The notes below the pieces were generated by a model, which was not told the origin of the DNA, searched no databases, and was given only the letters and a program-made list of their open reading frames with translations. A stretch of DNA of 64,000 nucleotides from Methanobacteriota archaeon (GTDB taxonomy: Archaea; Halobacteriota; Bog-38; Methanoflorentales; Methanoflorentaceae), in NCBI GenBank assembly GCA_963719035.1, contig CAVRAO010000002.1, positions 128,001 through 192,000 on the forward strand, written 5' to 3'. The position numbers were made by a program, and so were the translations under genes. This document shows positions 18,504 to 35,564 of this stretch, one piece after another. Numbering within the stretch: the first letter of the stretch is position 1; every line of letters starts with the position of its first letter.

Positions 18504-19541
18504 ATGCGAACTGAACGTACAACTGTCGATAAGAACGTCAGCCTGCTCCACGGCGCGGGCGGCGAAATGATGAACGCTCTGATCGCCGACGTCTTGACGA
18601 AGATCAAAAACAAGAACGCCGGCGGTATTGGCTTGGAATCGTTAGATGACGGAGCTGCCATTCCGTTAGCGCAAGGTGGATTCCTCATTCTTACTACAGA
18701 CACGCATGTCGTCAAGCCCATCTTCTTTCCCGGAGGGGACATTGGACGGCTCTCTGTTTCCGGAACGGTCAACGATCTTGCGATGATGGGCGCAGCGCCT
18801 CTTGCGCTGACGAGTGCGATCGTTATGGAGGATGGGTTCGCAATCAGTGATTTACGCAAGATCGTGGCGTCAATGGACGAGGCGACCCAGGAGGTCGACA
18901 CGGCGATCGTGACGGGTGACACGAAGGTGGTGGAAAAGGGAGCACTCGATGGGATCATTATTAACACTGCAGGGATCGGCTTTGTTGAAAGTCCGGTGCG
19001 AGATTGTGGACTTGTGCCAGGTAACAAACTCATCGTCACCGGCACGATTGGTGATAATGGGATTGCTGTGCTCGCCAAGCGGGAGGACTTTCACTTTCGG
19101 ACAGAACTCCGCTCAGACGTAGCACCGATCTGGCACACTGTAAAAGCCGCTCTTGACGCGGCTGATTCGACTGCAATAACGGCTATGAAAGACCCCACGC
19201 GAGGTGGCGTCGCGAGTGCGCTTAACGACATGGCACATAAAAGCGGCGTAGAGATCCTCATTGAAGAGGAGCAGTTACCAATCAATCCTTCGATAAGGGC
19301 AGCTGCTGAGATGCTTGGCATCGATGTGCTCGAAGTGGCTAACGAGGGCAAGGCGATCATCGGCGTTGACGCAGGGAGTGCAGAAGCGGTGCTCGCTGCA
19401 CTTAAAAAGACAAAGTATGGGAAGAAAGCCGCGATTATCGGCGAAGTAAATGAAGGTCAAAGAGTTCTGATGAAGACGCAGATCGGCGGAACTCGCTTTG
19501 TTGATGCACCGCTTGGCGATCCAGTGCCCCGCGTGTGTTAA
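18504..19541 (+). CDS. hypE: Hydrogenase maturation protein HypE
   Basis: HGAGG, FFPGGDIG.L...GTVNDL, TGDTKVV, KDPTRGG, C-terminal PRVC. Confidence 0.96.
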   Translation: MRTERTTVDKNVSLLHGAGGEMMNALIADVLTKIKNKNAGGIGLESLDDGAAIPLAQGGFLILTTDTHVVKPIFFPGGDIGRLSVSGTVNDLAMMGAAPLALTSAIVMEDGFAISDLRKIVASMDEATQEVDTAIVTGDTKVVEKGALDGIIINTAGIGFVESPVRDCGLVPGNKLIVTGTIGDNGIAVLAKREDFHFRTELRSDVAPIWHTVKAALDAADSTAITAMKDPTRGGVASALNDMAHKSGVEILIEEEQLPINPSIRAAAEMLGIDVLEVANEGKAIIGVDAGSAEAVLAALKKTKYGKKAAIIGEVNEGQRVLMKTQIGGTRFVDAPLGDPVPRVC

Positions 19542-19587
19542 CTACTAACGTCTTTAAAATAGCTTCTGACGGCTTGCGCACACGCGC

Positions 19588-19696
19588 AGAAAGCTTTAAT
19601 ATCAATCCCCAGCGTAGTAAGCTGTGCTGCGTCAAGCGGCCTTTACGCTTGTGCATGCCCGGGTAGTGTAGCGGCCAATCATGGAGCCCTGTCGAG
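19588..19696 (+). repeat. Copy 1 of an ~108-bp direct repeat: tRNA promoter + leader + 5' half of tRNA-Asp (19657-19696), left att of element 1
   Basis: Matches 25233-25340 with about 5 differences; the match ends exactly after the anticodon loop (ctgtcgag). Confidence 0.92.
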
Positions 19697-19721
19697 AGCC
19701 CCTCCTAATTTTGAGCCCCTT

Positions 19722-20840
19722 TTGACTACACCAGGCATTTGCGGAACTCTTAGTCCTTTTCACTTCGATTTCGTGAGTGATAAGATACGCACCATATATA
19801 CTACCGATTCAGGGAACGGTCACAGTCTTGATTCACTTCAATTGACGTTTTCGCGGGATCAACTTATCAATTACAAGAAATGGCGTATAGAAGGTCTTGA
19901 TCGGAAAAGCAGCAATTGGATGAACAAGGCCGCTGAGATTGTTTGGCACGGCACGCATGGCGTAATCTGTAAGCTAACAATGGACGCGGTGCGTGACGTT
20001 GCTTTAACCAAATACACGTGCGTTTATTCAAAACGTAAAGTGCTATGTTTTGCTAAAGGTCTCCTCAAGTATCTTGCCAAAACCACCTTCGACACTCGCT
20101 TTCAGGCATTTGAACTCTTCTTGGAGATGCCTAAGGTCCTCAAAATTCGTAAGCATGTTACAAGCCGCATTGTGACTAAGGAAGACATTGAAAATGTGCT
20201 AAAAGCGATTGAACAGGCGTTTAGCATCGGGCGTATTGATAACGCTCACTATCTAAACTACAAAGCGATAGTGTTCTTTGGCGCGTTTACGGGTCAGCGA
20301 CCTTTAGCGACAATAGCAAGATTAACTGCGCGACAATTTGAGGAAGCGGTGAAAATGAAGAAACCGGTTGTTGATGTTCTCCCGTGGCAAGATAAGATTC
20401 GCATGCAGCATTATTGCCCTCTCCACCCGCAAGTCGTTGAGGCTGTAGAACCTGCGCTGGAAGTTAGATTCGATGACGAGCGTGTTTTTGAGCAACTGTC
20501 CTTTCAAGAGTGGCTTAAGTACACAGACATCCGGCTATTGCAAGGAGGCGCTCGCATTGTCAATGGAGACCTGAGGAAATTTGCAGAGCAGCAATCCGAC
20601 GTACTGCAGTGGGATCAATCAAATAAGAACTACATACTAACCCACGGTGTCAGCGGGGTCGATTGGCGTTTTTACAAGCATCCGTTGCCTAAGATCGTGT
20701 ATGACGTATATATGCAGTATTGGAAAGAAGTCGAGCTTTCGTGTTTAAAGTGGCCATGCTTGTTCCCGCACAACCGGCAAAAATACCATACATACCGTCA
20801 TCGGCAAAAGCAAACGTTAGCCTGTGGGCTTCTTTCCTAA
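19722..20840 (+). CDS. Archaeal tyrosine recombinase/integrase, apparently intact catalytic set
   Basis: GAFTGQRP (R), DKIR (K), DLRKF (R), ILTHG (H), WRFYKH (Y); adjacent to tRNA half; start codon uncertain. Confidence 0.88.
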   Translation: MTTPGICGTLSPFHFDFVSDKIRTIYTTDSGNGHSLDSLQLTFSRDQLINYKKWRIEGLDRKSSNWMNKAAEIVWHGTHGVICKLTMDAVRDVALTKYTCVYSKRKVLCFAKGLLKYLAKTTFDTRFQAFELFLEMPKVLKIRKHVTSRIVTKEDIENVLKAIEQAFSIGRIDNAHYLNYKAIVFFGAFTGQRPLATIARLTARQFEEAVKMKKPVVDVLPWQDKIRMQHYCPLHPQVVEAVEPALEVRFDDERVFEQLSFQEWLKYTDIRLLQGGARIVNGDLRKFAEQQSDVLQWDQSNKNYILTHGVSGVDWRFYKHPLPKIVYDVYMQYWKEVELSCLKWPCLFPHNRQKYHTYRHRQKQTLACGLLS

Positions 20841-21087
20841 AAATAAAAAGCCCACGGCCTTATCAAAAACGTATGTTGACGACGATATTGCCCCATGAAC
20901 CCACCTGCCTGCTGAGACGATGGTAGTACTTTAAACTTAAAATTTGTGATAGCTTTTAGCAGGCGCCTATTAGCGGTCAATTCTGACCTCCGCCTCGCTG
21001 AGGCAATCGTAAATTCATCGTTACTTTTTGCTCTACTTTTTTTGTTCTGCGAGAATGTGGAGCACAGGCTATCCCTCACTAAGCGCA

Positions 21088-21798
21088 TCAAGAGACGTGT
21101 CCAATCGGGATAATGTAAAGCGGCTGCTGGTCTGGAGGGGTCTCTAACACTTCGCGCACCATCGAGTCATCAAAGGCGCCGATCGGAACCGCTCCCAATC
21201 CCAACGATGTACACTCGAGCAACACGTTTTGCGCTGCGTGACCAGCCTCGAGGTGGACGTAGCGCTCAGCACGTTCACCGTACTTCGTTGCGGCCCGCTC
21301 GTAGACCCCCATAATCACAAGTTTTAACGGTGCTTGTCGTACGGCGTCCTGATTCAAAGCGGCTTTTGTCAGGTTCTCCTGCACATCCGCTGATCTGATT
21401 TTCCCGAGGCTGTGATTTAGGGGGTTGTAATGGTACACTCCTGTTACGTTCACGACATAGACTTCGAGCGGATACAGCGCGCCCGCAGACGGCACCGTTC
21501 TGAATCCTTGAGTGCTCGTGATTCCTTGAGCGGCCCAAACGAGCTGTGAGAGCTCGCTTAGTGAGATGTCAGCGTCAGTGTACTCGCGTACCGACCGCCG
21601 CTGTTGGAACGTTTCCTCTAATGACATGTTTCCTTTCAGGACTGGGTCGGGAAGCTTGATGACGTCGATGACAGCGAGGTCATGTGATACAGGCACAACT
21701 GCATCGTCGCTCTTTTGCGAGCTCAACGCCATCCACCCTATAAGAGCGGAAGCGATCACCGCAATGACCAGCGCAACGGCCAAGATTTTTTTTCGCAT
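21088..21798 (-). CDS. SagB/ThcOx-family nitroreductase-like protein with N-terminal membrane anchor
   Basis: RRSVREY, RTVPSAGALYPLEVY, LEAGHAAQNVLL, IGAFDD. Confidence 0.9.
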   Translation of the reverse strand: MRKKILAVALVIAVIASALIGWMALSSQKSDDAVVPVSHDLAVIDVIKLPDPVLKGNMSLEETFQQRRSVREYTDADISLSELSQLVWAAQGITSTQGFRTVPSAGALYPLEVYVVNVTGVYHYNPLNHSLGKIRSADVQENLTKAALNQDAVRQAPLKLVIMGVYERAATKYGERAERYVHLEAGHAAQNVLLECTSLGLGAVPIGAFDDSMVREVLETPPDQQPLYIIPIGHVS

Positions 21799-21920
21799 CG
21801 ACGTACTCTCACGCTACACGCTTCACTTGAGAATAAGGACCTCCGCATAGTATAGAATTTATGCTTTAGCACGGCTAAGAAGAGGTGCAAAATTAGCACA
21901 AGTTAGCCCGAGTTATCCTA

Positions 21921-22019
21921 AACAGGTATGCAAAGCTGATAGGCAAGAACATTCATCCTCACACATTCTGGCATAAGTTTGCCATCAATAGCGTAAGGCA
22001 CGGATTTGTAATACGCAGA
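21921..22019 (+). pseudogene. Fragment of a XerC/D-like tyrosine recombinase
   Basis: Reads NRYAKLIGKNIHPHTFWHKFAINSVRHG, a decayed HPHxxRHSFA box II. Confidence 0.65.
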
Positions 22020-22044
22020 CCACCTTATGCCATTATGCTCTTCT

Positions 22045-22120
22045 TTCCTGGGAGCTAAGGATGTGCCTGACGACAGAACCAAATTGCCAATTAAGCCCTG
22101 GCACATCCTCCCCCTTTGTC
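22045..22120 (-). repeat. Hairpin-forming dispersed repeat, copy 1 (copy 2 inverted at 31352-31426)
   Basis: GGATGTGCC...GCTTAATTGGCAATTTGG...GGCACATCCTTAGCT shared by both copies. Confidence 0.8.
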
Positions 22121-22293
22121 TAAGCAAAGACTGTGCTGACGAATTTGCGGCTGAATTTCATGAAAGAGCCAATATGTGACGGATAAGGTAGTAAGAGCAG
22201 ATAAAGCTTTTTAACGACGTAAAAAGGAAAAGGAGCGCGAAACGCTCCATATTAGGAACCATTGCCGGCTTCAGTGCAGCTAAGGGTTGTGAC

Positions 22294-22587
22294 TTAAGGA
22301 AGACCCTTAATTATTGCTATTCCTTCTGCTTCTGGAAGCGCCTTCAATGTCTCTAAACTTGCCATTCCGGCGCTCGTTATCGTGAGCACTGCTTTCGCCA
22401 TTGCCTCGTCGCTCGGAGCTTCAACAACTACCACCATATCATATTCCCCAAAGACAAAGTGGATTTGTTTAATCTCTCCGCCGACGGACTTGAATATCTC
22501 TTTAGCGCTTTCTATTCGTTGCGGCATGTCCTTCACTTTCTCAATTCCTGCTTGCGTAAATTTATGAAGCAAGATGTAGCTTGGCAT
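22294..22587 (-). CDS. GYD-domain protein
   Basis: Y..L..FT..G, FGEYDMVVVVEAP, ETLKA. Confidence 0.9.
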   Translation of the reverse strand: MPSYILLHKFTQAGIEKVKDMPQRIESAKEIFKSVGGEIKQIHFVFGEYDMVVVVEAPSDEAMAKAVLTITSAGMASLETLKALPEAEGIAIIKGLP

Positions 22588-22790
22588 TTTGATGTAGCCT
22601 CCATTTTTTTAGTAGTGAGCGTTTTGAGCGATCAGACCATTAGCGTTTGCGCTGTATTGCGCGAGAAATGTGTGCAAGAGCCGCCGTCGGAAGTGATAGA
22701 ACGAGATAAGAGCCAAGAGGTAATCGCTTCTAACTACTTCCACACCGCGCTTCCTAATCGTTTACACCCCATGTTTTACTACACTAATGC

Positions 22791-23048
22791 GTGCGCGACG
22801 ATTGTCTCCAGGTCGATGAGCTCCTATTGCAGCTGGCGGACTACAAGAACGACTACGCGGACGTAGCCGCAGCAAAACTTTTAAAGAAGTGCTCTACCAG
22901 TTGGAAAGCCTATCGATATCTACAGGACCGCGTTCACGATGCCTGGCTGCCTGATAACGCCCGGCAGCAGGTTCGACAGATTATCAAAAAGATACAGGTG
23001 CAGATACACCAGCAGCGCGAATACAGCTGGACGTATCAACAGCCGTGA
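22791..23048 (+). CDS. Hypothetical protein
   Basis: 85-aa ORF with plausible helical composition; no recognised motif. Confidence 0.4.
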   Translation: MRDDCLQVDELLLQLADYKNDYADVAAAKLLKKCSTSWKAYRYLQDRVHDAWLPDNARQQVRQIIKKIQVQIHQQREYSWTYQQP

Positions 23049-23247
23049 GCGTGCAAAATAAAAGTTTTGCTAGTTTGTTAGCCATAAAACTACACGCAAC
23101 AAACTGAGAGGAAGGTTCTTCAAGCAAGTATCAGCGACGAAGGCTAGGGGCACACTAAAAATTTGAGGTAAATACCCTAGTTTGGCCAAGAGTATATAAA
23201 CGGCCCCTTGCCTTCGAACGTGGTTGTTATCATACGATATTTTAATA

Positions 23248-23272
23248 CGCGTGACAAGTTTTTGTCACACAT
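23248..23272. promoter_or_regulatory. Palindrome GTGACAA-gttt-TTGTCAC
   Basis: Perfect 7-bp arms at 23251-23268; flanks cgc...acat shared with the 4070 copy. Confidence 0.55.
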
Positions 23273-23477
23273 CAACGCCCGTGAAAAGTGGGCGCCCCTC
23301 TCGAAGGGTAAAGTCGACATGAAAAACTAAGGTGTAACGCTTTAAAAAATGTCTGGACCGTAGTCGCTTTTTGAAATAACGCCCAGTGTGACGTTATTAT
23401 CGTCGACAGAAAAAACCGATCACGATATTATGAGGCGTGATTCATGTACAAAGTACTGAAAACGTAGGAGGGAACAA

Positions 23478-23639
23478 ATGATTGAGAAGGGACTGATCTT
23501 AACCGGCAGCGATGCGGACGTATTGAGCAGTGCGCTTTCAGAAGTGAAAACGATAGTCTATAAAAAGGCAGGAACTCAATTAGATGATAGCCAAGCGCTC
23601 GATGCGCTCGTTTCGTATTTCCTTAATGCCGAAAGATAG
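23478..23639 (+). CDS. 53-aa hypothetical microprotein
   Basis: MIEKGLILTGSDADVLSSALSEVK...LVSYFLNAER; AGGAGG RBS upstream. Confidence 0.6.
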   Translation: MIEKGLILTGSDADVLSSALSEVKTIVYKKAGTQLDDSQALDALVSYFLNAER

Positions 23640-23654
23640 ACAAAAAGAGAAGTT

Positions 23655-23705
23655 TCACTTGTATTTTAGCCCCTTACGTAAGCGCCTGGTGCTCGGCACG
23701 ATTAT
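23655..23705 (+). repeat. 51-bp dispersed repeat, copy 1 (inverted copy at 32419-32469)
   Basis: 47/51 identity by manual alignment. Confidence 0.85.
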
Positions 23706-23820
23706 TGAGGGGACAGTCGTAAAGCCTGATCGTGGCCAGGAACTGCTCGATCTAAGTTAGATAGCTGGGTCATCTATGGAGTGGCATTACCTAAAAGCAC
23801 GAAGTAAATGGTGACAAAAA

Positions 23821-23997
23821 ATGAACTGTGAAGAAAAACTAAAAATCCTGATGGATGCTTGTGAGAAGGCATTAATGTACGGGTGGGAAGATAACTTCAA
23901 TTGGAGCAAGGATAAACCAGAAGAATTTTGGGATGAAGAAGAAGCGTGGATTGCAATAAAAGAAGCGTTTGTTAAAGTAAAAGGTGACAAAAAATGA
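23821..23997 (+). CDS. 58-aa virus-like hypothetical protein
   Basis: MNCEEKLKILMDACEKAL...KVKGDKK; GGTGA RBS; ATGA overlap with next gene. Confidence 0.7.
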   Translation: MNCEEKLKILMDACEKALMYGWEDNFNWSKDKPEEFWDEEEAWIAIKEAFVKVKGDKK

Positions 23998-24263
23998 GTG
24001 ACACAGATAAAGAAGTCCTTAAAAAAGTATTAGAACTTTGTGAGAAAGGAATCGATCAGGCGAGAAAAGATGCAACAAATTCTGTTGGTACTGCCGAATC
24101 TTATGCGAATGGTCAAGCCGTTGCATATATGACAGTCGTTGAACTAATCATGCGTATGAAGCAAGAAGTCACTCTAGATTATAAAGAGGCGTGGGATTCT
24201 CTAGTAAACACGAAGAGCATCAAATCGATAAAAGAAGAATGGAGTGAAGGCGACAAAAAATAA
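23994..24263 (+). CDS. 89-aa virus-like hypothetical protein
   Basis: GGTGA RBS, AT-rich, ends in GDKK like the upstream gene. Confidence 0.7.
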   Translation: MSDTDKEVLKKVLELCEKGIDQARKDATNSVGTAESYANGQAVAYMTVVELIMRMKQEVTLDYKEAWDSLVNTKSIKSIKEEWSEGDKK

Positions 24264-24501
24264 TAAGTGCAGCAATAACGAAAACAACGATAGCAATTAC
24301 CACAACGAAGGCGGCGGCATTCGTTTTTATAGTCAATCCTATCCTGCGTACCAGCCTCCCTGCCGATTTATGGTATTTGGACTTAAGCAGAGAGCTGGCC
24401 CCGCATTGTTGTACAGCTAGCGCCTAGAGCAATAACGCCGTGTAGCCGCTTATTCTTCATAAATCCGTTATTCGTTTGCTGCTTGGCCACACGTGCTGAC
24501 C

Positions 24502-24523
24502 GGGGCCTAATACAGGCTCTGAC
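24502..24523 (+). repeat. att-like site GGGGCC-TAATACA-GGCTCTGAC
   Basis: 13/15 arm match to the tRNA-Asp anticodon arm, 7-nt spacer. Confidence 0.7.
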
Positions 24524-24620
24524 TAACTCTTTAATAAACCAGCTGCCTCCACTAGTTAAAAAACGAGTTCGGCGTCCCTGCCAAAACGAATTAATAGCAG
24601 GTCAATTCTGGATACTGACT

Positions 24621-25013
24621 ATGGATAGTGAGGGGTCAAGAAGGAAATTCGAAAATATCGGCGATTACATCGCTACGTTTCCTAAGAATGTTCAGCACAC
24701 GCTCAGGGAGCTGAGGAGTGCAATCAAAGAATCGGCGCCTGAAGCTGAAGAAACCATTAGTTATGGAATGCCCACCTTCAAGCTCAATGGTAACTTAGTA
24801 CATTTTGCCGCCTATGAGAAGCATATCGGGTTCTATCCAACCCCTTCCGCCATTCTTGCTTTCAAGGAGAAATTATCCATTTATAAGCAATCAAAAGGAG
24901 CGGTTCAATTTCCAATCGATGGGCCGATTCCGTTAGATATTGTAAGGGAGATGGTCAGGTTCAGAGTAAAAGAAAATCTGACAAAAGGTGCAAGAAGGAG
25001 AAAAAAGGACTGA
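24621..25013 (+). CDS. DUF1801/YdhG-like protein
   Basis: DYIATFP, APEAEETISYGMPTF, HIGFYP, SKGAVQFP; likely start MDSEG. Confidence 0.9.
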   Translation: MDSEGSRRKFENIGDYIATFPKNVQHTLRELRSAIKESAPEAEETISYGMPTFKLNGNLVHFAAYEKHIGFYPTPSAILAFKEKLSIYKQSKGAVQFPIDGPIPLDIVREMVRFRVKENLTKGARRRKKD

Positions 25014-25094
25014 GACTGAGCTGACTTGTTCAAAAACGCTACTTTTATCCTCCGCTGCACTTTAACTAGAACTAACTAAACAAGAGGTGGAATA

Positions 25095-25232
25095 ATGACA
25101 GAAGACGATAAGAACGAAATCATAAAGTGCACTGTCTCGTGCCCCGAGTGTGGTGCTGAGATGGTCTGCACGCACGAAGACCCAAAACACGAAGAGAAGC
25201 ACAGGTGTGAAAAAGGCCACGTGTGGACCTGA
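25095..25232 (+). CDS. 45-aa CPxCG-type zinc-finger microprotein
   Basis: MTEDDKNEIIKCTVSCPECGAEMVCTH...HRCEKGHVWT; GAGGTG RBS. Confidence 0.65.
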   Translation: MTEDDKNEIIKCTVSCPECGAEMVCTHEDPKHEEKHRCEKGHVWT

Positions 25233-25300
25233 AGAAAGCTTTAATATCAATACACAGCTAGTAAGCTGTGCTGCGTCAAGCGGCCATTACGCTTGTGCAT
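25233..25300 (+). promoter_or_regulatory. tRNA promoter (BRE/TATA gaaagctttaatat) and hairpin leader
   Basis: Duplicated at 19588-19656. Confidence 0.75.
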
Positions 25301-25373
25301 GCCCGGGTAGTGTAGCGGCCTATCATGGAGCCCTGTCGAGGCTCCGACTCGGGTTCAAATCCCGACTCGGGCG
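25301..25373 (+). tRNA. tRNA-Asp(GUC), no intron, CCA not encoded
   Basis: Acceptor stem GCCCGGG/CTCGGGC, anticodon arm GAGCC-CTGTCGA-GGCTC, GTTCAAATC T-loop, T-tract downstream. Confidence 0.96.
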
Positions 25374-25754
25374 CTCCTTTTTTGTAATAGAGTAATCTGC
25401 AGTGTTATTTGCTGCTAGGAATTCTAAACTGCGCTTTTCTATGTCGCTATCCTTCTTATTGCCCTTTATTTCTCGTGGTTCGCCTTTAGCGTCGCGTATA
25501 TCCAAAGCTAACCTTAAAGCGCCTATCGTTTCGTCAGCACGCCTTATAATCTCGTCTTTACCCTCTAACACCGCACGCAGCCGTATTATTTCAGTATTAT
25601 CCTGCTTATCAAGTGCGACAATACGACCTTCGACATAAGCAGTTAAAGCTTCAATCGTTAGGGCCGAACGGGTTACGTTATTGCTGTTCGCTCGTTCAAT
25701 AACGGCTTTTAACAGCTCGGCAGGTAATGTAATAGACATACGGGATAGCGTCAT
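25323..25754 (-). CDS. CopG/ribbon-helix-helix + coiled-coil protein reading antisense into the tRNA 3' half
   Basis: RMSITLPAELLKAVIERA....VTRSAL..EAL..Y. Confidence 0.75.
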   Translation of the reverse strand: MTLSRMSITLPAELLKAVIERANSNNVTRSALTIEALTAYVEGRIVALDKQDNTEIIRLRAVLEGKDEIIRRADETIGALRLALDIRDAKGEPREIKGNKKDSDIEKRSLEFLAANNTADYSITKKERPSRDLNPSRSLDRAP

Positions 25755-26085
25755 ACGTTCCGTATGATAATACCTTATTTAGTATTAAGCTGCCGATATC
25801 ATCGCACTCGTTCGTGTTTCTAGAAAATGTCACAAGAACTGATGGCATCAAAAAACCGGTTAAAAGTAGGTACCTGTATAGTTTTTTATAATCATAGCCG
25901 AACGGGCCGCGTGTGCGTGTTTAAACCTCGATATAACCGCCTGTTTGAAGCGATGGAATGGGCAACAGGTAACGCCGCGACTTAATCTTAATAATAGAAA
26001 AAAATCGATAAAATCCTTCTTAACTCGCGTATTGGTCCCGTCGCCTAAATATAAACCGATAGAATTCGGCGCGTGCCCTATCTGC

Positions 26086-26223
26086 TTAATCCTTACATTG
26101 CGGGCATACGTTACTCGTCGTTGATACAAACTCCCAGCAATATATGCACCTATAGATGCGCTTCCAGGGTACGCCGGACGTCGTGTCCATGCGTCCCCAT
26201 TTCGGACGCGTTTTATATGCCAC
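26086..26223 (-). CDS. Zinc-ribbon microprotein (CIYC...CPQC)
   Basis: GTG 26223 or ATG 26190 start; YRCIYCWEFVSTTSNVCPQCKD. Confidence 0.5.
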   Translation of the reverse strand: MAYKTRPKWGRMDTTSGVPWKRIYRCIYCWEFVSTTSNVCPQCKD

Positions 26224-26297
26224 CGCTGCTATATTATCGCCCGCTCTCGTCGAGTTCGTTCAATAATCGCGCGTGTAGCCGCATACTTAGATATCAG

Positions 26298-26414
26298 TTA
26301 TGTCGTTTGCATTATTCTGCGCGAGCGGCGGTAATACTGACAATAAGGGACTAAATCATTATCGCCACGCAGTTTACAATCAGCGTATTTCTCGCACTGT
26401 CGGCAGTCCATCAT
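26298..26414 (-). CDS. 38-aa Cys-rich microprotein
   Basis: MMDCRQCEKYADCKLRGDNDLVPYCQYY...; GGCGTGA RBS-like sequence. Confidence 0.5.
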   Translation of the reverse strand: MMDCRQCEKYADCKLRGDNDLVPYCQYYRRSRRIMQTT

Positions 26415-26438
26415 TTTATTCACGCCTTTTCTAGCAGC

Positions 26439-26567
26439 TTACCTATGTAACCGGACACCCTTATGATAGCGCAGAATCGCTAGAATAATATCATCTGGAT
26501 TATCGGCGTTGATCGTGAGAGAACCGACCTTTATCGGAATTTTTTCCTTCGTCGTTTTATCGTTCAT
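26439..26567 (-). CDS. 42-aa hypothetical microprotein
   Basis: MNDKTTKEKIPIKVGSLTINADNPDDIILAILRYH...; co-oriented with neighbours. Confidence 0.45.
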   Translation of the reverse strand: MNDKTTKEKIPIKVGSLTINADNPDDIILAILRYHKGVRLHR

Positions 26568-26605
26568 ATCTATACACCATCTTAGCGCAATGCCCCCACC
26601 CTACC

Positions 26606-26752
26606 CTATAATTGTATTCTGACGATTTCTCCAAAAGCGTCAGCTGTACATTTGACACATGTGGCGGCGTCCGCCTCTCCATAGGCGCATTCAGAATGGA
26701 GATCGCGTAGGCAGATGTTGCTCTTCACAGTTTCAGTTAATAGTTCTTTCAT
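26606..26752 (-). CDS. 48-aa Cys/His microprotein, C-x4-H-x2-C-x9-C-x2-C
   Basis: MKELLTETVKSNICLRDLHSECAYGEADAATCVKCTADAF...; GGGGAG RBS. Confidence 0.6.
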   Translation of the reverse strand: MKELLTETVKSNICLRDLHSECAYGEADAATCVKCTADAFGEIVRIQL

Positions 26753-26835
26753 TTTGTTTGACTCCCCTTTTGGTATTTTGATAGCAAGGACCTCCCTACT
26801 ACCAATAGCACCGACGACACGTCACTATGTAACCC

Positions 26836-26860
26836 CGCGTGACAACAACTGAGTGTCACG
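26836..26860. promoter_or_regulatory. Palindrome CGTGACA-N9-TGTCACG
   Basis: Perfect 7-bp arms upstream of the microprotein run. Confidence 0.55.
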
Positions 26861-27008
26861 GTATCGACATATGCTCGCAGCTTACGCAGTAGGTCATAGT
26901 CAATAATAGGAAAAGAAGAGTCAATTACCTACCCGGCGGGCGTATCGTGAAAGTACTAACCTGGCGGGTATCTTTCTGTACGAGAGCAATAGTAATGCAG
27001 CGTGATGA

Positions 27009-27422
27009 TTACGTTACGTGTTTGCGTTCCTTTACCGCTTTCGGTAGGTCAAGATATAGCTCAAACGCTTGGTATCGCGCATCAAACCGCGTCTTTGATA
27101 AGTAGCGGAAAAACGCCTTTGCGAAGTTTATTACCTTTCGCTTCGCGTAAATGTCGCTATATTTATCCAGAACGTAATTACGAAGCTCGTTTGCGGTTAT
27201 CCTGCTAATTTCGCCCTTTGTATAGCGCCATAGAATATCTGCGGCCTTATTTAGCCAATTAATCGTTTTTCGCTAAGTCCTGCGATACGAAGGTTATATA
27301 ATCTTTTAACTCGCTTCTCGAAAATGTCAGGTTAAGCTTATCTAGTCTGTCGCTATCGCATACGCTAGAATTAGATTGCTTTATTGAATTTTAACCATTA
27401 ATAGCGTTTAATCGCCTAAATA
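27009..27422 (-). pseudogene. Truncated, frameshifted paralog of the 19722 integrase
   Basis: LDKLNLTFSRSEL / INWLNKAADILW / YAKRKVINFAKAFFRYLSKTRFDARYQAFELYLDLPKAVKERKHVT* aligns with the intact copy; catalytic domain absent. Confidence 0.88.
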
Positions 27423-27470
27423 AGCCCTGTCGAGGCTTCTGATTTTGTTCAGAGCAGACTCTTAGGAAGC

Positions 27471-28307
27471 CTAAACCTGTGGAGGGCCTCGCTCAAGCAG
27501 CTCTTGTATCCGTTGTTCTGCAGGGATTGACTGCTGCCACAACAGTTCGAAGGTGGAGGCGAGGTATTGAGCATACGTTGGGTCATCACTCCAGAGCACG
27601 CTTACCAGTTCTCTAAGCGAGGCGCGTTTTAAGTCGGCGGCATTAATCACGCTCATACCAATTTTTCCATCAAAAACGCAGAACAATAGCCCTGAGTACG
27701 TGTTAAAATGACGTACTTCCATTCCAGCGTCTAAGTGCTCTCGGATTAGCTCAATAAACGGATAAGTGACGTCAGTTATAAATCGTATCCTCCCCCCCCG
27801 GTCTATAAACTTCTTATCGTCCTCAACAAAAAACAAGGATGAAAACACCGTCAGTATAGGGGGGACAACTGCGAACCAGTCCTTTTCAGCTGAGGCCAGG
27901 GCAGATAGCGTTACAGTCACCACTTCTTTCATGCTCTTGAGAATTTTGTACGAGGCAATCTCACCGGCGGGCCGAAACCGCTGTTGCTCTGAGAGCTCTT
28001 GTAGCTCCTGCTTTCGCACCTCCATCTCGCGTATTTCGCTTTCGTGCCTTTTGAGCGCAGCGTCAAGAGCGGTTTCGAGGTCTACTGCTGTGTAAACCGT
28101 TGGTGTATCGAGTGAGGGCCGCACCATACCTTTCTCGATGAGGCCGGTAAGCGTCCGGTGCACGTCCTCCCGATATGTTTTAAGAGACTTGGCGAGAGGG
28201 GAAGGGGTTTTTGGGCCGTACCTAAGCAGATGTAAGTAAAGCTGAGCCTCTTTTTCACTGAGCCCAAATTGAGTTAAACGACGGATGAACTCATCGTCCT
28301 CAGTCAT
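27471..28307 (-). CDS. TrmB-family transcriptional regulator
   Basis: Close paralog of 1453..2289. Confidence 0.9.
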   Translation of the reverse strand: MTEDDEFIRRLTQFGLSEKEAQLYLHLLRYGPKTPSPLAKSLKTYREDVHRTLTGLIEKGMVRPSLDTPTVYTAVDLETALDAALKRHESEIREMEVRKQELQELSEQQRFRPAGEIASYKILKSMKEVVTVTLSALASAEKDWFAVVPPILTVFSSLFFVEDDKKFIDRGGRIRFITDVTYPFIELIREHLDAGMEVRHFNTYSGLLFCVFDGKIGMSVINAADLKRASLRELVSVLWSDDPTYAQYLASTFELLWQQSIPAEQRIQELLERGPPQV

Positions 28308-28531: not shown

Positions 28532-29017
28532 ATGCCCCACGGATTCATAATTAACGGCGTAAAAGACGCACTTGCAGCCGCCTTAGGGATACTTGAGTCA
28601 CAACAAAAAGAGGTCGCGTGGCTTGTGCCACCTTCGGTTCATTCCCTCGCAACGACCCTTGGCTTCCTTGAAGCAATGAGGGCATTTGTCAAGCGCGGCG
28701 GAGTGTCACGAGGAATAGTTGCCGTGTCGCGCGAGAACGTTGACGAGATACGAATGAGCGTAGAGAGTGGCGAGGACATTCGCCATAGTGACGCGGTGCA
28801 CGAAGTCTTCATGTATGTAGGAGACAAGCAGAAGAGCGTTAGCGCGCTAAACATTGGAGTTGTGGAATTCAGGCTCGATACTCCGGTCGCTGCCTTTTGG
28901 AGTGAAGACCCCACATATATAGAGTACCTGCTCGCTGCCTTCGAGACTGTATGGGCACAGGCAATACCTGCTCAGGAGCGGATAGAGCAGTTAGAAAAAG
29001 AAAAAAAGCAGCGCTAA
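28532..29017 (+). CDS. Stand-alone TrmB effector-domain protein (no HTH)
   Basis: Paralog of 235..714 (IIN.VKDALA, VGDK..S.S, AFWSEDPTY.EYLL). Confidence 0.87.
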   Translation: MPHGFIINGVKDALAAALGILESQQKEVAWLVPPSVHSLATTLGFLEAMRAFVKRGGVSRGIVAVSRENVDEIRMSVESGEDIRHSDAVHEVFMYVGDKQKSVSALNIGVVEFRLDTPVAAFWSEDPTYIEYLLAAFETVWAQAIPAQERIEQLEKEKKQR

Positions 29018-29691: not shown

Positions 29692-30555
29692 ATGACGAGC
29701 GATGATGAGTTTACCCTACGACTCACCGAGTTCGCATTGAGCCAGAAGGAAGCCCGGGTCTATTTTCAGTTGCTCAAATATGGGCCGCAGCCTGCAGCTG
29801 TCGTTGCAAAGCGTCTGGAGACGTATCGTGAGGACGTGCATCGAACATTGAGGCAGCTTGTTAAGAAGGGCATCGCGTGCCAATCACTGAGCAAACCAGC
29901 AGTACACGCGGCGATGCCCCTTGAAGACGCGCTTGATGCGGCCCTGAGACAAAAAACCAGAGAACTGCGGTACAAAGAGGATGTGAAGCAAGAGCTCATC
30001 AGGCTTGCGCCGCGCGTGAGTCCCTTGCCGCTGGAAGAGTATTGCAGTTATCGGGTGGTGACTGGCTGCAATGAGTGCATCGCGGCTAGCTTGGTGCAGG
30101 CCGAAGCGGCGGTGCACGATATTTTAACGATCGGTCACCCTGCTGCGCTGGCATACTCATACAAACAAGGATTTTTCAAGACGTTTCTAGACGCAGTGGA
30201 GCACGGGGTGGAGATGCGCTTCATCCTCGACGTATCCAGTCAAGCACTTGACGCGGTTCGCGCTGCTATCGAAGGAGGGATCGACGTGCGGCATTATGAG
30301 CAGTACCGAGGGATAATGTTCACGCTCGTTGACTCTAAGGAGAGTTTCACGGTTGTGGCGTTTGATCCGCGTTACAGTCCTAAGGACACTAAGCATACCG
30401 CATTTTTGTGCGACAACCCTAAGTACGCGCACAGACTTGCAACCCAGTTTGAGCTGGTCTGGAGACAATCGATCGACGGAACGCAGCGGGCACAAGATTT
30501 GAGGAGCGAAACTCCAGACCCCGCCTCTGACCGGTCCAGCGCGTCCACGTTGTAA
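29692..30555 (+). CDS. TrmB-family transcriptional regulator
   Basis: LSQKEARVYFQLLKYGP...TYREDVHRTL; RHYEQYRGI. Confidence 0.9.
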   Translation: MTSDDEFTLRLTEFALSQKEARVYFQLLKYGPQPAAVVAKRLETYREDVHRTLRQLVKKGIACQSLSKPAVHAAMPLEDALDAALRQKTRELRYKEDVKQELIRLAPRVSPLPLEEYCSYRVVTGCNECIAASLVQAEAAVHDILTIGHPAALAYSYKQGFFKTFLDAVEHGVEMRFILDVSSQALDAVRAAIEGGIDVRHYEQYRGIMFTLVDSKESFTVVAFDPRYSPKDTKHTAFLCDNPKYAHRLATQFELVWRQSIDGTQRAQDLRSETPDPASDRSSASTL

Positions 30556-31734: not shown

Positions 31735-32250
31735 CTATGCCTTCACTACGACGGTGTGCGCTGCGCGGTCTCCAGTCCGCTGTCTCTTATCTGACGTCCA
31801 AATAAGAATTGCACCGAGCAAGAACGGAATAATGAACGGTATTGCGTCGATGATCAGCAGTAAGGAACGCACGAGTGCATCGACATAGCCAATCTTTGAA
31901 CCATCCTCTTTGACCACTTTAATCTTAAGGGCCATCATGCCTACCGTCTGTCCATACGCTCCCAAGAGGAGCGTGAAATAGATGAGCACGATGAGTGATG
32001 ATATGACGCTGCCAAGTCCTGCGAGCGAATTCGCTGTGGTGGATACGTAAAAGCTTCCATTAGTAAAATTCGCGCTATTAAAGACGGGCGTTTGCAACGG
32101 ATTGGCGAAAACTGACGCAATAATGCCCGCAATAATGACATCGATAAGAAGAGCTACGAATCTGACACCGACGCTACGGTACTGCAGCGGTGCTGGAGTC
32201 ATTTCTGGAGCTGCGGCCATTTCAGGCGTTGGGGTCATTTCATTTGCCAT
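31735..32250 (-). CDS. RDD-family membrane protein
   Basis: RFVALLID, GQTVGM....IKVV, RQRTGDRAAHTVVV. Confidence 0.92.
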   Translation of the reverse strand: MANEMTPTPEMAAAPEMTPAPLQYRSVGVRFVALLIDVIIAGIIASVFANPLQTPVFNSANFTNGSFYVSTTANSLAGLGSVISSLIVLIYFTLLLGAYGQTVGMMALKIKVVKEDGSKIGYVDALVRSLLLIIDAIPFIIPFLLGAILIWTSDKRQRTGDRAAHTVVVKA

Positions 32251-32418
32251 TCGTTCACCTCCTTGTGGCTTTGTTGCCTAATTGTGTGTTTGGTAGGTAA
32301 AAACCTATGGATGGGATACGGTACCTGAACGAGTGTCCGTTCTTTTCAAATTTTGATAACGAAGAGAAGGGCACCGCGGAGCTAGGCTTTGCGACTATCT
32401 GTGCCCCCTTGCCTTTCG

Positions 32419-32469
32419 ATAATCGTACCTAGCACCAGGCGCTTACGTAGGGGGCTAAAATACGAGTGA
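32419..32469 (-). repeat. 51-bp dispersed repeat, copy 2
   Basis: Reverse complement of 23655-23705. Confidence 0.85.
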
Positions 32470-32610
32470 CGTAGTCCTTTTTCCTACCCAACATTCACAG
32501 CGCTTCTGAAGCACGAAACGAGCTCATCGAGTGCCTGCGCATCCCCAGGCTAGCTTTATGCTCGAGAAGTACTGTAAGAAACAGGTTACGGAAGCTGAGG
32601 AACATATGAA

Positions 32611-33114
32611 ATGAGTATCCTTGTAAATGTAACAATAAGCATAATTGTTCTGGTAGTAGCATACATCATAGCTTCTCTTTACTATCCTATGCTGGCAGGA
32701 GGCGCAGCATATGGTCGTACTCCGAGGAAGATTGTAGCTGAGGCTCTTAAACTGGCAGACCTTAAAAAAGATGAAGTCTTCTACGACCTTGGATGTGGGA
32801 CAGGAGAAGCCCTTATAGAAGCCTCAAAGTTATGCGATCATGTGAAGGGAGTTAAGATAGGGCCTATTCGATGGTTTATAGCCAAGCTTAGAGCAAGAAA
32901 AGCCAAAGTCATTCTAGGAAACCTTTTCAAGCAAGACATTTCTGACGCTGATGTTATATTCATATTCCAGTACCAAGGAAGGATAAACAACAGAATCGTG
33001 ATGAAAATAAAGGCTGAAACACGAAGCGAAACAAGGATCATAAGTTATTTGCACCCAATAGAAGATATGAAGTTCGTCAAAAGCCAAAACGAGATTTTCA
33101 TTTACAAGACATGA
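32611..33114 (+). CDS. Membrane-anchored class I SAM-dependent methyltransferase
   Basis: FYDLGCGTG, ISDADVIF; N-terminal TM helix. Confidence 0.88.
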   Translation: MSILVNVTISIIVLVVAYIIASLYYPMLAGGAAYGRTPRKIVAEALKLADLKKDEVFYDLGCGTGEALIEASKLCDHVKGVKIGPIRWFIAKLRARKAKVILGNLFKQDISDADVIFIFQYQGRINNRIVMKIKAETRSETRIISYLHPIEDMKFVKSQNEIFIYKT

Positions 33115-33192
33115 AAGGATCTGTCAACTCTTTAACAAGGCGTCTGCTGCCACCGGAGGGCATCTGTTGTTTCTGCTACGGTAGGGGCGTTG

Positions 33193-33214
33193 GTCGTAGC
33201 CTGTATTAGGCTCC
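33193..33214 (+). repeat. att-like site GTCGTAGCC-TGTATTA-GGCTCC
   Basis: 14/15 arm match; spacer identical to the 24502 site (inverted); degenerate second copy at 33257-33277. Confidence 0.78.
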
Positions 33215-33389
33215 GGTTGCTGTGTTGAATTAGTTCGTCAGAGCGTTCAGAAATAGGTCGGAGCTCAATAGGCCTCCACTGACGTGGAATTTTGCAAATA
33301 GTCTGAAAGAAAAAACATAATGTAAACTAAATTACGAGATTATTCTGATGCACAAAAAAATGAAAGAAAATACATTAAATTGTGGTAAA

Positions 33390-34143
33390 ATGCAAGAAAC
33401 AGACCTCTATCTTACCATATTCCAACGGAAGTCCGTTAGAAAGTACGATTTAGACCCCTTCGATGAAGATACATTAAAGGAGCTCAGAGAGCATCTTCAA
33501 ACTTTAAAACCGTTGCATAAGGACATTAAAATTGAATTTAAGATTTTATCTCCCGATGCTGTTATAAGAAGGACGATGAGAAAAGCACCGCACTATATAG
33601 CTGTTTTTGCAGAGGTAAAAGAGGGGTATCTAAGCAACATAGGGTTCATGCTACAGCAGATGGATCTATTATTTTCTGCTAACGGATTGGGTAGTTGCTG
33701 GCAGGGGATCCCTACTCTCAAAAAAGAAGGTTTGGCAAGTTCACGTCTGAAATTTATCATGTTAATGTACCTTTGGAAAGCCCCAGGAAACATTACACCG
33801 AACAAAAACTTCCCAATTCAAAAGAAAATCGCTCCAGGAAATAAGTGACATTAAAGGTGCAGATGATTTACTGGAAACAGCTCGTCTTGCTCCTTCTGCA
33901 CGTAATGCACAGGGGTGGTTTTTCACTGGTGATAAAGATTTAATTCATGCATATTACCGTAAACCAAGCTTCATTGCGGGACTTTTAACCAAAAAATATC
34001 CTCCCATGGATGTGGGAATCAGTCTTTATCACTTGAAACTTGGTGCAGAACATTTTGGCAAGGAAACTGAGGTTATATTTGATAATCCGGATGGCAATAC
34101 TCTCAATGATTATGAGTATGTTGCCAGTTTGCGCTTAACATAA
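33390..34143 (+). pseudogene. Nitroreductase-family protein, frameshift near 33770
   Basis: IFQRKSVRKY, GLGSCWQG, then FGKPQETLHR...ARLAPSARNAQGWFF in a shifted frame to TAA 34143. Confidence 0.8.
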
Positions 34144-35054: not shown

Positions 35055-35564
35055 GGCGATCAGAAGATGGGGCTCTGGCGGAGCATGTCCATGTCGGTGA
35101 CGTAGCGAGCTGCCTCTCCACGATGAGGTCTTGCCTGCCCTTCAGCTGCAGCAGGACCGCCTGAGGAAGCTCTGGGATTCATTCTATAAGTTGCTTAAAT
35201 CTCACTTCTGCCCAATACTGCATATAAACATCATAGACGTTTTCAGGCAACGGATGTTTATAATGCTTCCAATCGATTCCACTCACTCCGTGCGTCATAA
35301 TATACGCTCGGTTTGAATGATCTCACTGAATACCGTCGCCATATTGTTCGTATCTTAGCGACTTTTAGCAGTTACAAAGCTTTATCGTAGTTCGTAGTGA
35401 TTTACTATGGCTGCTAAGCATGCCACAGCCGACACGGCATGCTGCGAGTTCATAAGCTATTCATTTTTGTGTAGGGCTTCCCTACGGGTGATCCCCGTAG
35501 CCTGTCGCGCTTGCGCTGAGGCGGGCATGCAATTCTCAAAAAGAGATAAGGAGGCGAAGCTAAG

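Follow-up and report, generated by a model that had tools for sequence, protein, structure and literature searches.

A single-copy tRNA-Asp gene bordered on both sides by integrase genes of one family lies in a 64,000-nucleotide stretch of contig CAVRAO010000002.1 (positions 128,001 to 192,000; hereafter the window), from a member of the archaeal family Methanoflorentaceae. The tRNA-Asp(GTC) gene (25301-25374, plus strand) is the sole tRNA that ARAGORN detects in the window, and the same program finds no second tRNA-Asp in the 2.19-Mb genome; its Rfam score is 54.5 bits. To the left, the chromosomal flank is a hypE-like gene (18504-19541, plus strand; Pfam AIRS and AIRS_C), whose synteny with tRNA-Asp is conserved in 21 of 24 genomes of the taxonomic family, searched with the hypE end and the repeat described below. 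To the right, a gene for a TrmB-family regulator (27471-28307, minus strand; PF01978) is the probable flank in the genus, with homologue fragments lying by the tRNA-Asp sites of two relatives (G009 and G021). The right-flank gene of the sister genus is unusable as a border because its orthologue lies 267 kb away in the window's genome, and the trmB-like gene is taken as the right flank for the genus on weaker evidence. GC content is 0.43-0.47 across most of the 20-28 kb interval, compared with 0.54-0.55 in the hyp genes.

Between hypE and the working tRNA lies one copy of a direct repeat (19588-19696), the other copy of which (25233-25340) runs into the tRNA gene itself. The copies span 109 and 108 nucleotides (nt), are 95% identical and differ at five positions. 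Each comprises 69 nt 5' of tRNA-Asp plus tRNA positions 1-40: it starts a few bases 5' of AAAGCTTTAATATC, a putative archaeal B-recognition element (BRE)/TATA box, continues through a leader of about 45 nt containing a hairpin, and ends at CTGTCGAG, inside the anticodon loop. The left copy begins 47 nt after the hypE stop codon, its tRNA part (19657-19696) has no Rfam tRNA match, and it is followed after 26 nt by an open integrase frame (19722-20840, plus strand). This left junction is read as the displaced chromosomal promoter-like box, leader and tRNA 5' half, and the second copy as their element-borne counterparts at the right end of element 1 (19697-25340, plus strand). This element of 5,644 bp (GC 0.43-0.51) replaces the 5' half of the gene and is delimited by the repeat; its composition and an empty site in the sister genus agree with an insertion. 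As in the islands catalogued by Islander, a cognate 5' fragment (19657-19696) is found upstream of an intact tRNA on the same strand, an integrase gene (19722/19773-20840, 355-372 codons) lies inside the interval, and the site is unoccupied in relatives (G002, G003 and G004). The original prediction, made from the sequence alone, had already placed a promoter and tRNA 5' half up to 19696, an intact plus-strand integrase directly after it and the full tRNA between two integrases, and the layout found here is the same.

On the other side of the tRNA, the 15-nt core AGCCCTGTCGAGGCT recurs. It occurs exactly twice in the window, at 25329 within the working gene and at 27423, and two matches were seen in 0 of 100 shuffles. 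A window search allowing up to two mismatches returned only these two known copies, though it was a weak search, with two matches also in 4 of 100 shuffles. After the second core (27423-27437), 33 nt can still be aligned to the tRNA-Asp 3' half, and the right junction as a whole (27423-27470, plus strand), which aligns to intact junctions in relatives, is read as the core followed by a decayed, displaced chromosomal 3' half. Immediately left of this core, on the minus strand, is the remnant of a second integrase, present in two frames with stops and truncated after ...KERKHVT, leaving the N-terminal domain only. It shares 53% identity with integrase 1 across residues 61-152 of the latter, and is 69% identical to integrases at the same position of tRNA-Asp in two relatives (G023 and G019). 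The predicted core, decayed 3' half and homologous minus-strand remnant are therefore all present, the core as an exact second copy; the remnant's proposed extent (27009-27422) does not stand, its recognisable part lying at about 26991-27340. Element 2 (25341-27422, plus strand; about 2.1 kb) would accordingly have replaced the 3' half and then decayed, with its first bases (25341-25374) completing the working tRNA.

The two arrangements can be followed separately in relatives. In three inspected sister-genus genomes (G002, G003 and G004), hypE is directly followed by one intact tRNA-Asp, which is the empty site that the original prediction anticipated, and in five of that genus's six genomes the search gave hypE and one short tRNA match, with no further copy. 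The promoter-plus-5'-half segment is present at two or three copies in 8 of 17 other genomes of the window's genus and in none of the six sister-genus genomes. A junction running from 5' half through core to integrase occurs in seven genomes of the genus, their integrases being 64-100% identical to integrase 1, and residue 35 follows the core's end by 128-129 nt in six of the seven and by 146 nt in a decayed remnant (G010). Two relatives with the same layout as the window are single contigs, and contigs of two public runs, from two studies, span the junction of 5' half and integrase. The D-loop, proposed earlier as a marker of which copy resembles the relatives, reads cctatc in every other copy fetched (displaced 5' halves as well as relatives' working tRNAs), as in the middle copy, and ccaatc only in the window's left copy, so this variant is best explained as a private change in a dead copy; a related strain in the same two public runs has other changes, at 19676 and 19677.

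The mirror arrangement, in which an opposite-strand integrase is followed by the core and a displaced 3' half, is likewise found at tRNA-Asp in G023 and G019. The arm GCCTAAATA|AGCCCTGTCGA is common to both and to the window's right junction, and their junctions retain either a 46-nt (96%) or a partly deleted 3' half. In the complete genome G019, the junction that aligns with the window's is 18 kb rightward of tRNA-Asp, another of its type is 40 kb away on that side, and stacked left-type elements fill the interval between hypE and tRNA-Asp; this genome therefore has the window's two-sided layout at larger scale. A third arrangement, consisting of the whole tRNA followed by a same-strand integrase, is present in four genomes (G011, G020, G021 and G023), in one of which (G023) a perfect copy of the 3' half lies 14 kb further on.

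Taken together, the single-copy tRNA-Asp gene between hypE and the trmB-like gene has very probably been struck twice in its anticodon loop by elements of one divergent archaeal integrase family, and the working gene is probably assembled from element-supplied parts; by position, element 1 would have supplied its 5' half and element 2 its 3' half. Element 2 would have arrived first, carrying a tRNA 3' half and, across the core, an integrase gene reading away from it. This would have left the order of working tRNA, element 2, opposite-strand integrase, core and displaced chromosomal 3' half, after which integrase 2 and the displaced half would have decayed. Element 1 would then have brought a TATA-like promoter, leader and 5' half, directly across the core from its integrase, stranding the chromosomal promoter and 5' half beside hypE and placing its own ahead of element 2's 3' half. 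Element 2 is considered the older because its integrase is broken and the 3' half decayed, and element 1 the younger because its integrase is intact and its repeat copies remain 95% identical.

Integrase 1 (19773-20840, plus strand) appears to be an intact but divergent tyrosine recombinase, identified through family matches to PHROG integrases and PF00589. The family alignment comprises 17 members, 41-81% identical to integrase 1; phrog_216 and phrog_1, which both carry an integrase annotation, are matched by 13 and 12 of them, respectively. PF00589 is matched by 6 of the 17, one of them above the curated cut-off; for a paralogue encoded in the window's genome and 41% identical to integrase 1, the score is 27.9 bits, with the cut-off at 27.1. 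Five residues (R193, K225, R285, H308 and Y318) are invariant in 17/17 sequences. They presumably correspond to the tyrosine-recombinase catalytic pattern (Arg, Lys, Arg and His/Trp, with Tyr as nucleophile). In the ESM Atlas, the ten best named neighbours of integrase 1 are all PF00589 clusters, which serves as a lead only. At E 1e-5 or better, 637 database proteins match the family; their sources name them 'integrase' or, in many cases, just 'hypothetical', and a precomputed Pfam domain is given for 0 of the 120 best listed among them. Judging from record titles, the hosts are peat and sediment metagenome-assembled genomes (MAGs) labelled Methanomicrobia, Euryarchaeota or Halobacteriota, together with Methanoregula, Methanoculleus and Archaeoglobi. 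By homology, this is a divergent archaeal tyrosine-recombinase family, abundant and mostly missed by standard profiles. A scan of IMG/VR with the family alignment for free viral forms gave 32 pattern matches, none of them confirmed. Elsewhere in the window's genome, a second intact family integrase (C2:16704-18029; 41% identical) lies on the same strand after a whole tRNA-Val(CAC), and many displaced 3' halves of tRNA-Val and tRNA-His are present, indicating that the genome is heavily colonised by the family.

Where integrase 1 begins bears on whether integration splits its gene. Its frame of 372 codons opens at TTG 19722; in all six aligned left-type junctions a ...CTCC motif and a T-rich tract come after the core, and the column aligned with GTG 19773 holds ATG or GTG in 4/6 junctions of relatives. 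From this alignment, GTG 19773 is probably the start, and the gene most likely begins about 77 nt past the core and is left unsplit by integration. The alternative for integrase 1, a 'suicidal' enzyme of the SSV/pTN3 kind whose gene contains the site and of which the 372-codon frame is only the C-terminal part, draws on three observations: upstream, no stop interrupts the frame across the tRNA half (425 codons, lacking a conserved start), which leaves some room for a split gene; an open reading frame (ORF) at the other end of element 1 (25150-25395) is in matching frame; and pTN3-like integrases use a tRNA 5' half and are split on integration (PMC8371274, PMC5495485). It is nevertheless improbable. 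Protein conservation begins only at about residue 39, downstream of the site, and the supposed N-terminal part overlaps another ORF and includes the TATA-like box, while the T-rich tract and aligned start column just described also speak for a start past the core. Moreover, upstream of the same conserved N-terminus relatives carry either a whole tRNA, a 5' half in sense orientation or a 3' half in antisense orientation, at varying distance, from which it follows that the attachment site is not within conserved coding sequence.

A little less probable again is a single insertion into the loop of one composite element of 7.7 kb (19697-27422), with inward-facing integrases at both ends and a complete tRNA-Asp of its own, the chromosomal halves to either side then being the two parts of a single target. 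The core does stand at both outer ends of this interval, both integrase genes point inward and excision between the outer cores would yield such a unit, but the two sides are of unequal age, the left having an intact integrase and a well-preserved repeat and the right a broken integrase and a barely recognisable 3' half. Relatives, furthermore, have the two arrangements separately, or 18 kb apart with different cargo, and integrases 1 and 2, at only 53% identity, are each closest to integrases of their own arrangement. Although MAGs can collapse or duplicate repeats, which is all that can be said for such a reading, it is scarcely credible that the left copy is a local duplication, inversion product or assembly artefact unrelated to integration (all named in the original prediction as what would overturn it) and the right 15-mer a chance match, since the repeat stops sharply in the anticodon loop and its copies differ at five positions, the same left junction recurs in seven genomes, two of them single-contig, and is bridged by contigs of two other runs, and the 15-mer was found twice in no shuffle and sits in a junction alignable to intact ones in relatives.

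Two insertions by one family into one gene, from opposite sides, agree with the wider behaviour of the family. Upstream of 74 non-redundant integrase N-termini, an antisense 3' half was recorded in 24 cases, a sense 5' half in 10 (seven Asp, two His and one doubtful Val), a sense whole tRNA in 10, a sense 3' half in 4 and an antisense whole tRNA in 2; 13 gave partial tRNA matches (10 antisense, 3 sense) and 11 nothing recognisable. The survey of integrase orientation that had been suggested thus returns both polarities. In a maximum-likelihood tree of 63 integrases with at least 250 aligned residues, all three tRNA-Asp arrangements fall in one 12-row clade (support 87) that also includes one tRNA-His integrase and is nested in an 18-row clade (support 99), and the 5'-half arrangement requires at least four changes.

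The closest comparisons come from tRNA-His. Integrases beside a sense 5' half in G003 and an antisense 3' half in G002 are 89.6% identical, and those of a second opposite-half pair (G018 and G019) are 83.0% identical, whereas the two tRNA-His 5'-half integrases share only 74.8% identity with each other, less than either opposite-half pair. DNA homology between the loci of the first pair (L111 in G003 and L115 in G002) is 88% over 1,024 nt and runs from exactly the core to the integrase 3' end. The junctions read TGGCC-CTGTGGA-G|TCTCTTTTTT and TGGCC-TCCACAG-G|TCTCTTTTTT, sharing the arm with the loop reversed, which indicates that one integrase-side arm is attached to the loop in both orientations. 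Between the far arms of these opposite-polarity elements, matches are at chance level only, and their cargo is also unrelated. In G018, the far end of the element, 14 kb away, consists of 33 nt of upstream sequence and the 5' half, before the working tRNA-His. The proposal that one integrase family reads the core in both directions is borne out most strongly by these pairs; mirror-image use of one gene, which the original prediction regarded as unusual, is indeed present but recurs in the family and is no one-off oddity.

The position of the exchange points to the anticodon loop. Both window elements lose identity with the tRNA within the 8-nt block CTGTCGAG, and in a variant in relatives identity starts at the same block, placing strand exchange in or at the 7-nt anticodon loop, between the inverted-repeat arms of its stem. 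By analogy with established tyrosine recombinases, integrase dimers would bind the symmetric stem arms as inverted core sites, and the asymmetric 7-nt loop would serve as the overlap that sets direction. The tRNA half that each element must carry would then follow from loop polarity relative to the integrase-side arm, and a carrier of the 5' half would also have to supply a promoter, which fits a repeat that starts at the TATA-like box. As far as these junctions can be compared, polarity is not fixed by the enzyme: only the integrase-side arm and integrase module are conserved, and they are joined to the loop either way. Tentatively, and at somewhat less than even likelihood, the arm-plus-integrase module may be altogether indifferent to polarity, modules 83-90% identical being wired either way with at least four flips among 63, such that the enzyme would need only a symmetric stem and one arm and opposite-polarity sites would arise easily. 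A switch could, speculatively, pass through an intermediate with a whole tRNA gene, or begin with an infrequent antiparallel synapsis at the symmetric stem, after which the adjacent half and promoter would be captured.

Several points, in addition to the open frame upstream of integrase 1, weigh against the reading of two insertions by a single family. Integrase 1 itself is unmatched by sequence in Pfam, NCBIfam and PDB: PF00589 is not found even at E 10, NCBIfam gave no family for three proteins, and the PDB search gave one irrelevant match (E 0.47). Its fold and the catalytic roles of its residues are hence putative, taken from homology and a residue pattern. No intact right-hand-type integrase was seen at tRNA-Asp in relatives, those of G023 and G019 each containing one internal stop. 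The origin of both tRNA halves from elements, which the original prediction put forward, is favoured by the topology of the locus and is deduced from position only; the sequence cannot show it because the working tRNA-Asp is 100% identical across the genus. Current activity of the elements is not supported, as there is no excised circle or empty-site joint among contigs: the joints 19696>25341 and 25340>27438 are absent from contigs of four runs over 18800-28300, a result uninformative on rare forms. Finally, tRNA halves in the survey were called by BLAST against 45 tRNAs, and the tree was a quick one, from a short search with Shimodaira-Hasegawa-like approximate likelihood ratio test (SH-aLRT) support only.

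Islands with 'reversed target gene orientation' were reportedly described by Zhao and Williams in 2002. In the Islander collection, 159 of 3,919 islands leave a displaced 5' fragment (PMC4383910), and Krupovic and colleagues call recombination with the 5' region of tRNA genes 'considerably less frequent' (PMC6563490). A 2021 review presents pTN3-like integrases as unique in archaea in using a tRNA 5' half (PMC8371274). In these pTN3/TKV4-like elements of Thermococcales, 41 bp of tRNA-Leu are shared, the integrase is split and the rebuilt tRNA is parted from its original promoter (PMC8371274, PMC5495485). Given the Islander and pTN3-like precedents, the left element on its own is a rare but catalogued layout.

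The differences lie in what accompanies it. Islander's 5'-fragment islands resemble element 1 in a crossover centred on the anticodon, a 5' fragment displaced upstream and a gene restored by the island; here, however, a homologous integrase occupies the gene from its 3' side too, a TATA-like box opens the element-borne piece and the arrangement switches repeatedly within one integrase clade. Likewise, the pTN3/TKV4-like elements share with element 1 an archaeal host and a tRNA 5' half as attachment site, whereas here the integrase gene is whole, a promoter-like box is part of the 109/108-nt repeat and the 3' half serves sister integrases. For SSV1 and lambda-type integrases, the review gives the overlap as the 7-nt anticodon loop within its palindromic stem (PMC8371274), and a loop overlap of this kind fits the shared CTGTCGAG block. 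The SSV1 integrase, in contrast, is split on integration, and lambda-type sites have two distinct arms, where related elements here keep only the integrase-side arm in common. Tandem arrays, in which one tRNA site is re-used serially and older units decay, are described in two of these sources (PMC6563490, PMC8371274) and are likewise seen in G019 and G002, but growth here is on both sides, with the working tRNA staying in the middle. No literature description was found of two-sided use of one tRNA gene by one family, of polarity switching or of this integrase family, in a search that key subscription papers lay outside. Three features look new: the occupation of one gene from both sides by a single family, how often the family changes side, and the divergent archaeal integrase family itself.

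Near-universal replacement of the 3' part in tRNA genes is usually explained by retention of the host promoter. The present family would be a natural one that replaces both 5' and 3' parts of the same gene with closely related enzymes, its 5' replacers bringing a minimal promoter-like box. Its matched attachment-site pairs offer a means to test how a tyrosine integrase sets direction at a symmetric stem-loop and how sites of new polarity evolve. A tRNA gene that is essential and present in one copy could, promoter included, be wholly mobile-element DNA, which bears on how the evolution of archaeal tRNA genes and promoters is read. If the module is indeed indifferent to polarity, essential single-copy tRNA genes (Asp and His) would be continually overwritten from both ends, again with their promoters.

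The cargo of element 1 includes genes for a nitroreductase-family protein (21088-21798, minus strand; PF00881, E 7e-37), a GYD-domain protein (22294-22587, minus strand; PF08734, E 9e-28) and a DUF1801 protein (24483-25013, plus strand; PF08818, E 1e-15). A Cys-rich ORF of 45 codons (25095-25232, plus strand), with no Pfam or PHROG match, ends flush with the start of the element-borne promoter copy. Nine cargo proteins compared with PHROGs matched 0 families.

Right of the tRNA-Asp locus are three TrmB-family paralogues (27471-28307, minus strand; 28532-29017 and 29692-30555, plus strand) with mutual identities of 25-39%. Genes at 31738-34140 have counterparts, 85-91% identical, inside or beside the tRNA-Asp elements of G018 (L041); given these counterparts and the right-flank orthologue 267 kb away, mobile DNA at this locus may extend well past 27.4 kb. 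In G020, a tRNA-Asp 3' half (C5:70009-70051, minus strand) lies inverted beside an integrase pseudogene (70283-71011), 7.7 kb from the working tRNA-Asp, which suggests an inversion at this site.

Regarding the integrase-side arm, the block of about 1 kb from core to integrase stop is seemingly an exchangeable cassette between L111 and L115. The equal spacing seen in the whole-tRNA arrangement prompted the idea that the arm is itself a decayed 3' half; this was unsupported, ungapped identity being no better than in shuffles, of which 504 to 1,697 of 2,000 matched it across six sequences.

Isolated C-terminal fragments of family integrases (about residues 270-340) are also widespread. One lies in the window (35188-35349, minus strand) and at least 15 more elsewhere in the genome (for example C8:149107-149268 and C2:459731-459892). 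In relatives, such fragments occur serially, on the same strand, downstream of intact integrases. At the 5' side they begin at ragged positions, and at the 3' side they stop where the gene naturally ends; a sensitive family profile applied to the 1.5 kb upstream of 15 of them found no N-terminal or central part, only further C-terminal fragments, and N-terminal-only remnants are rare. In G002, about ten integrase genes or remnants lie on one strand across 60 kb downstream of a tRNA-Gly and tRNA-His pair (C1:2665143-2726035), a stretch that looks like a very long tandem array at one tRNA gene.

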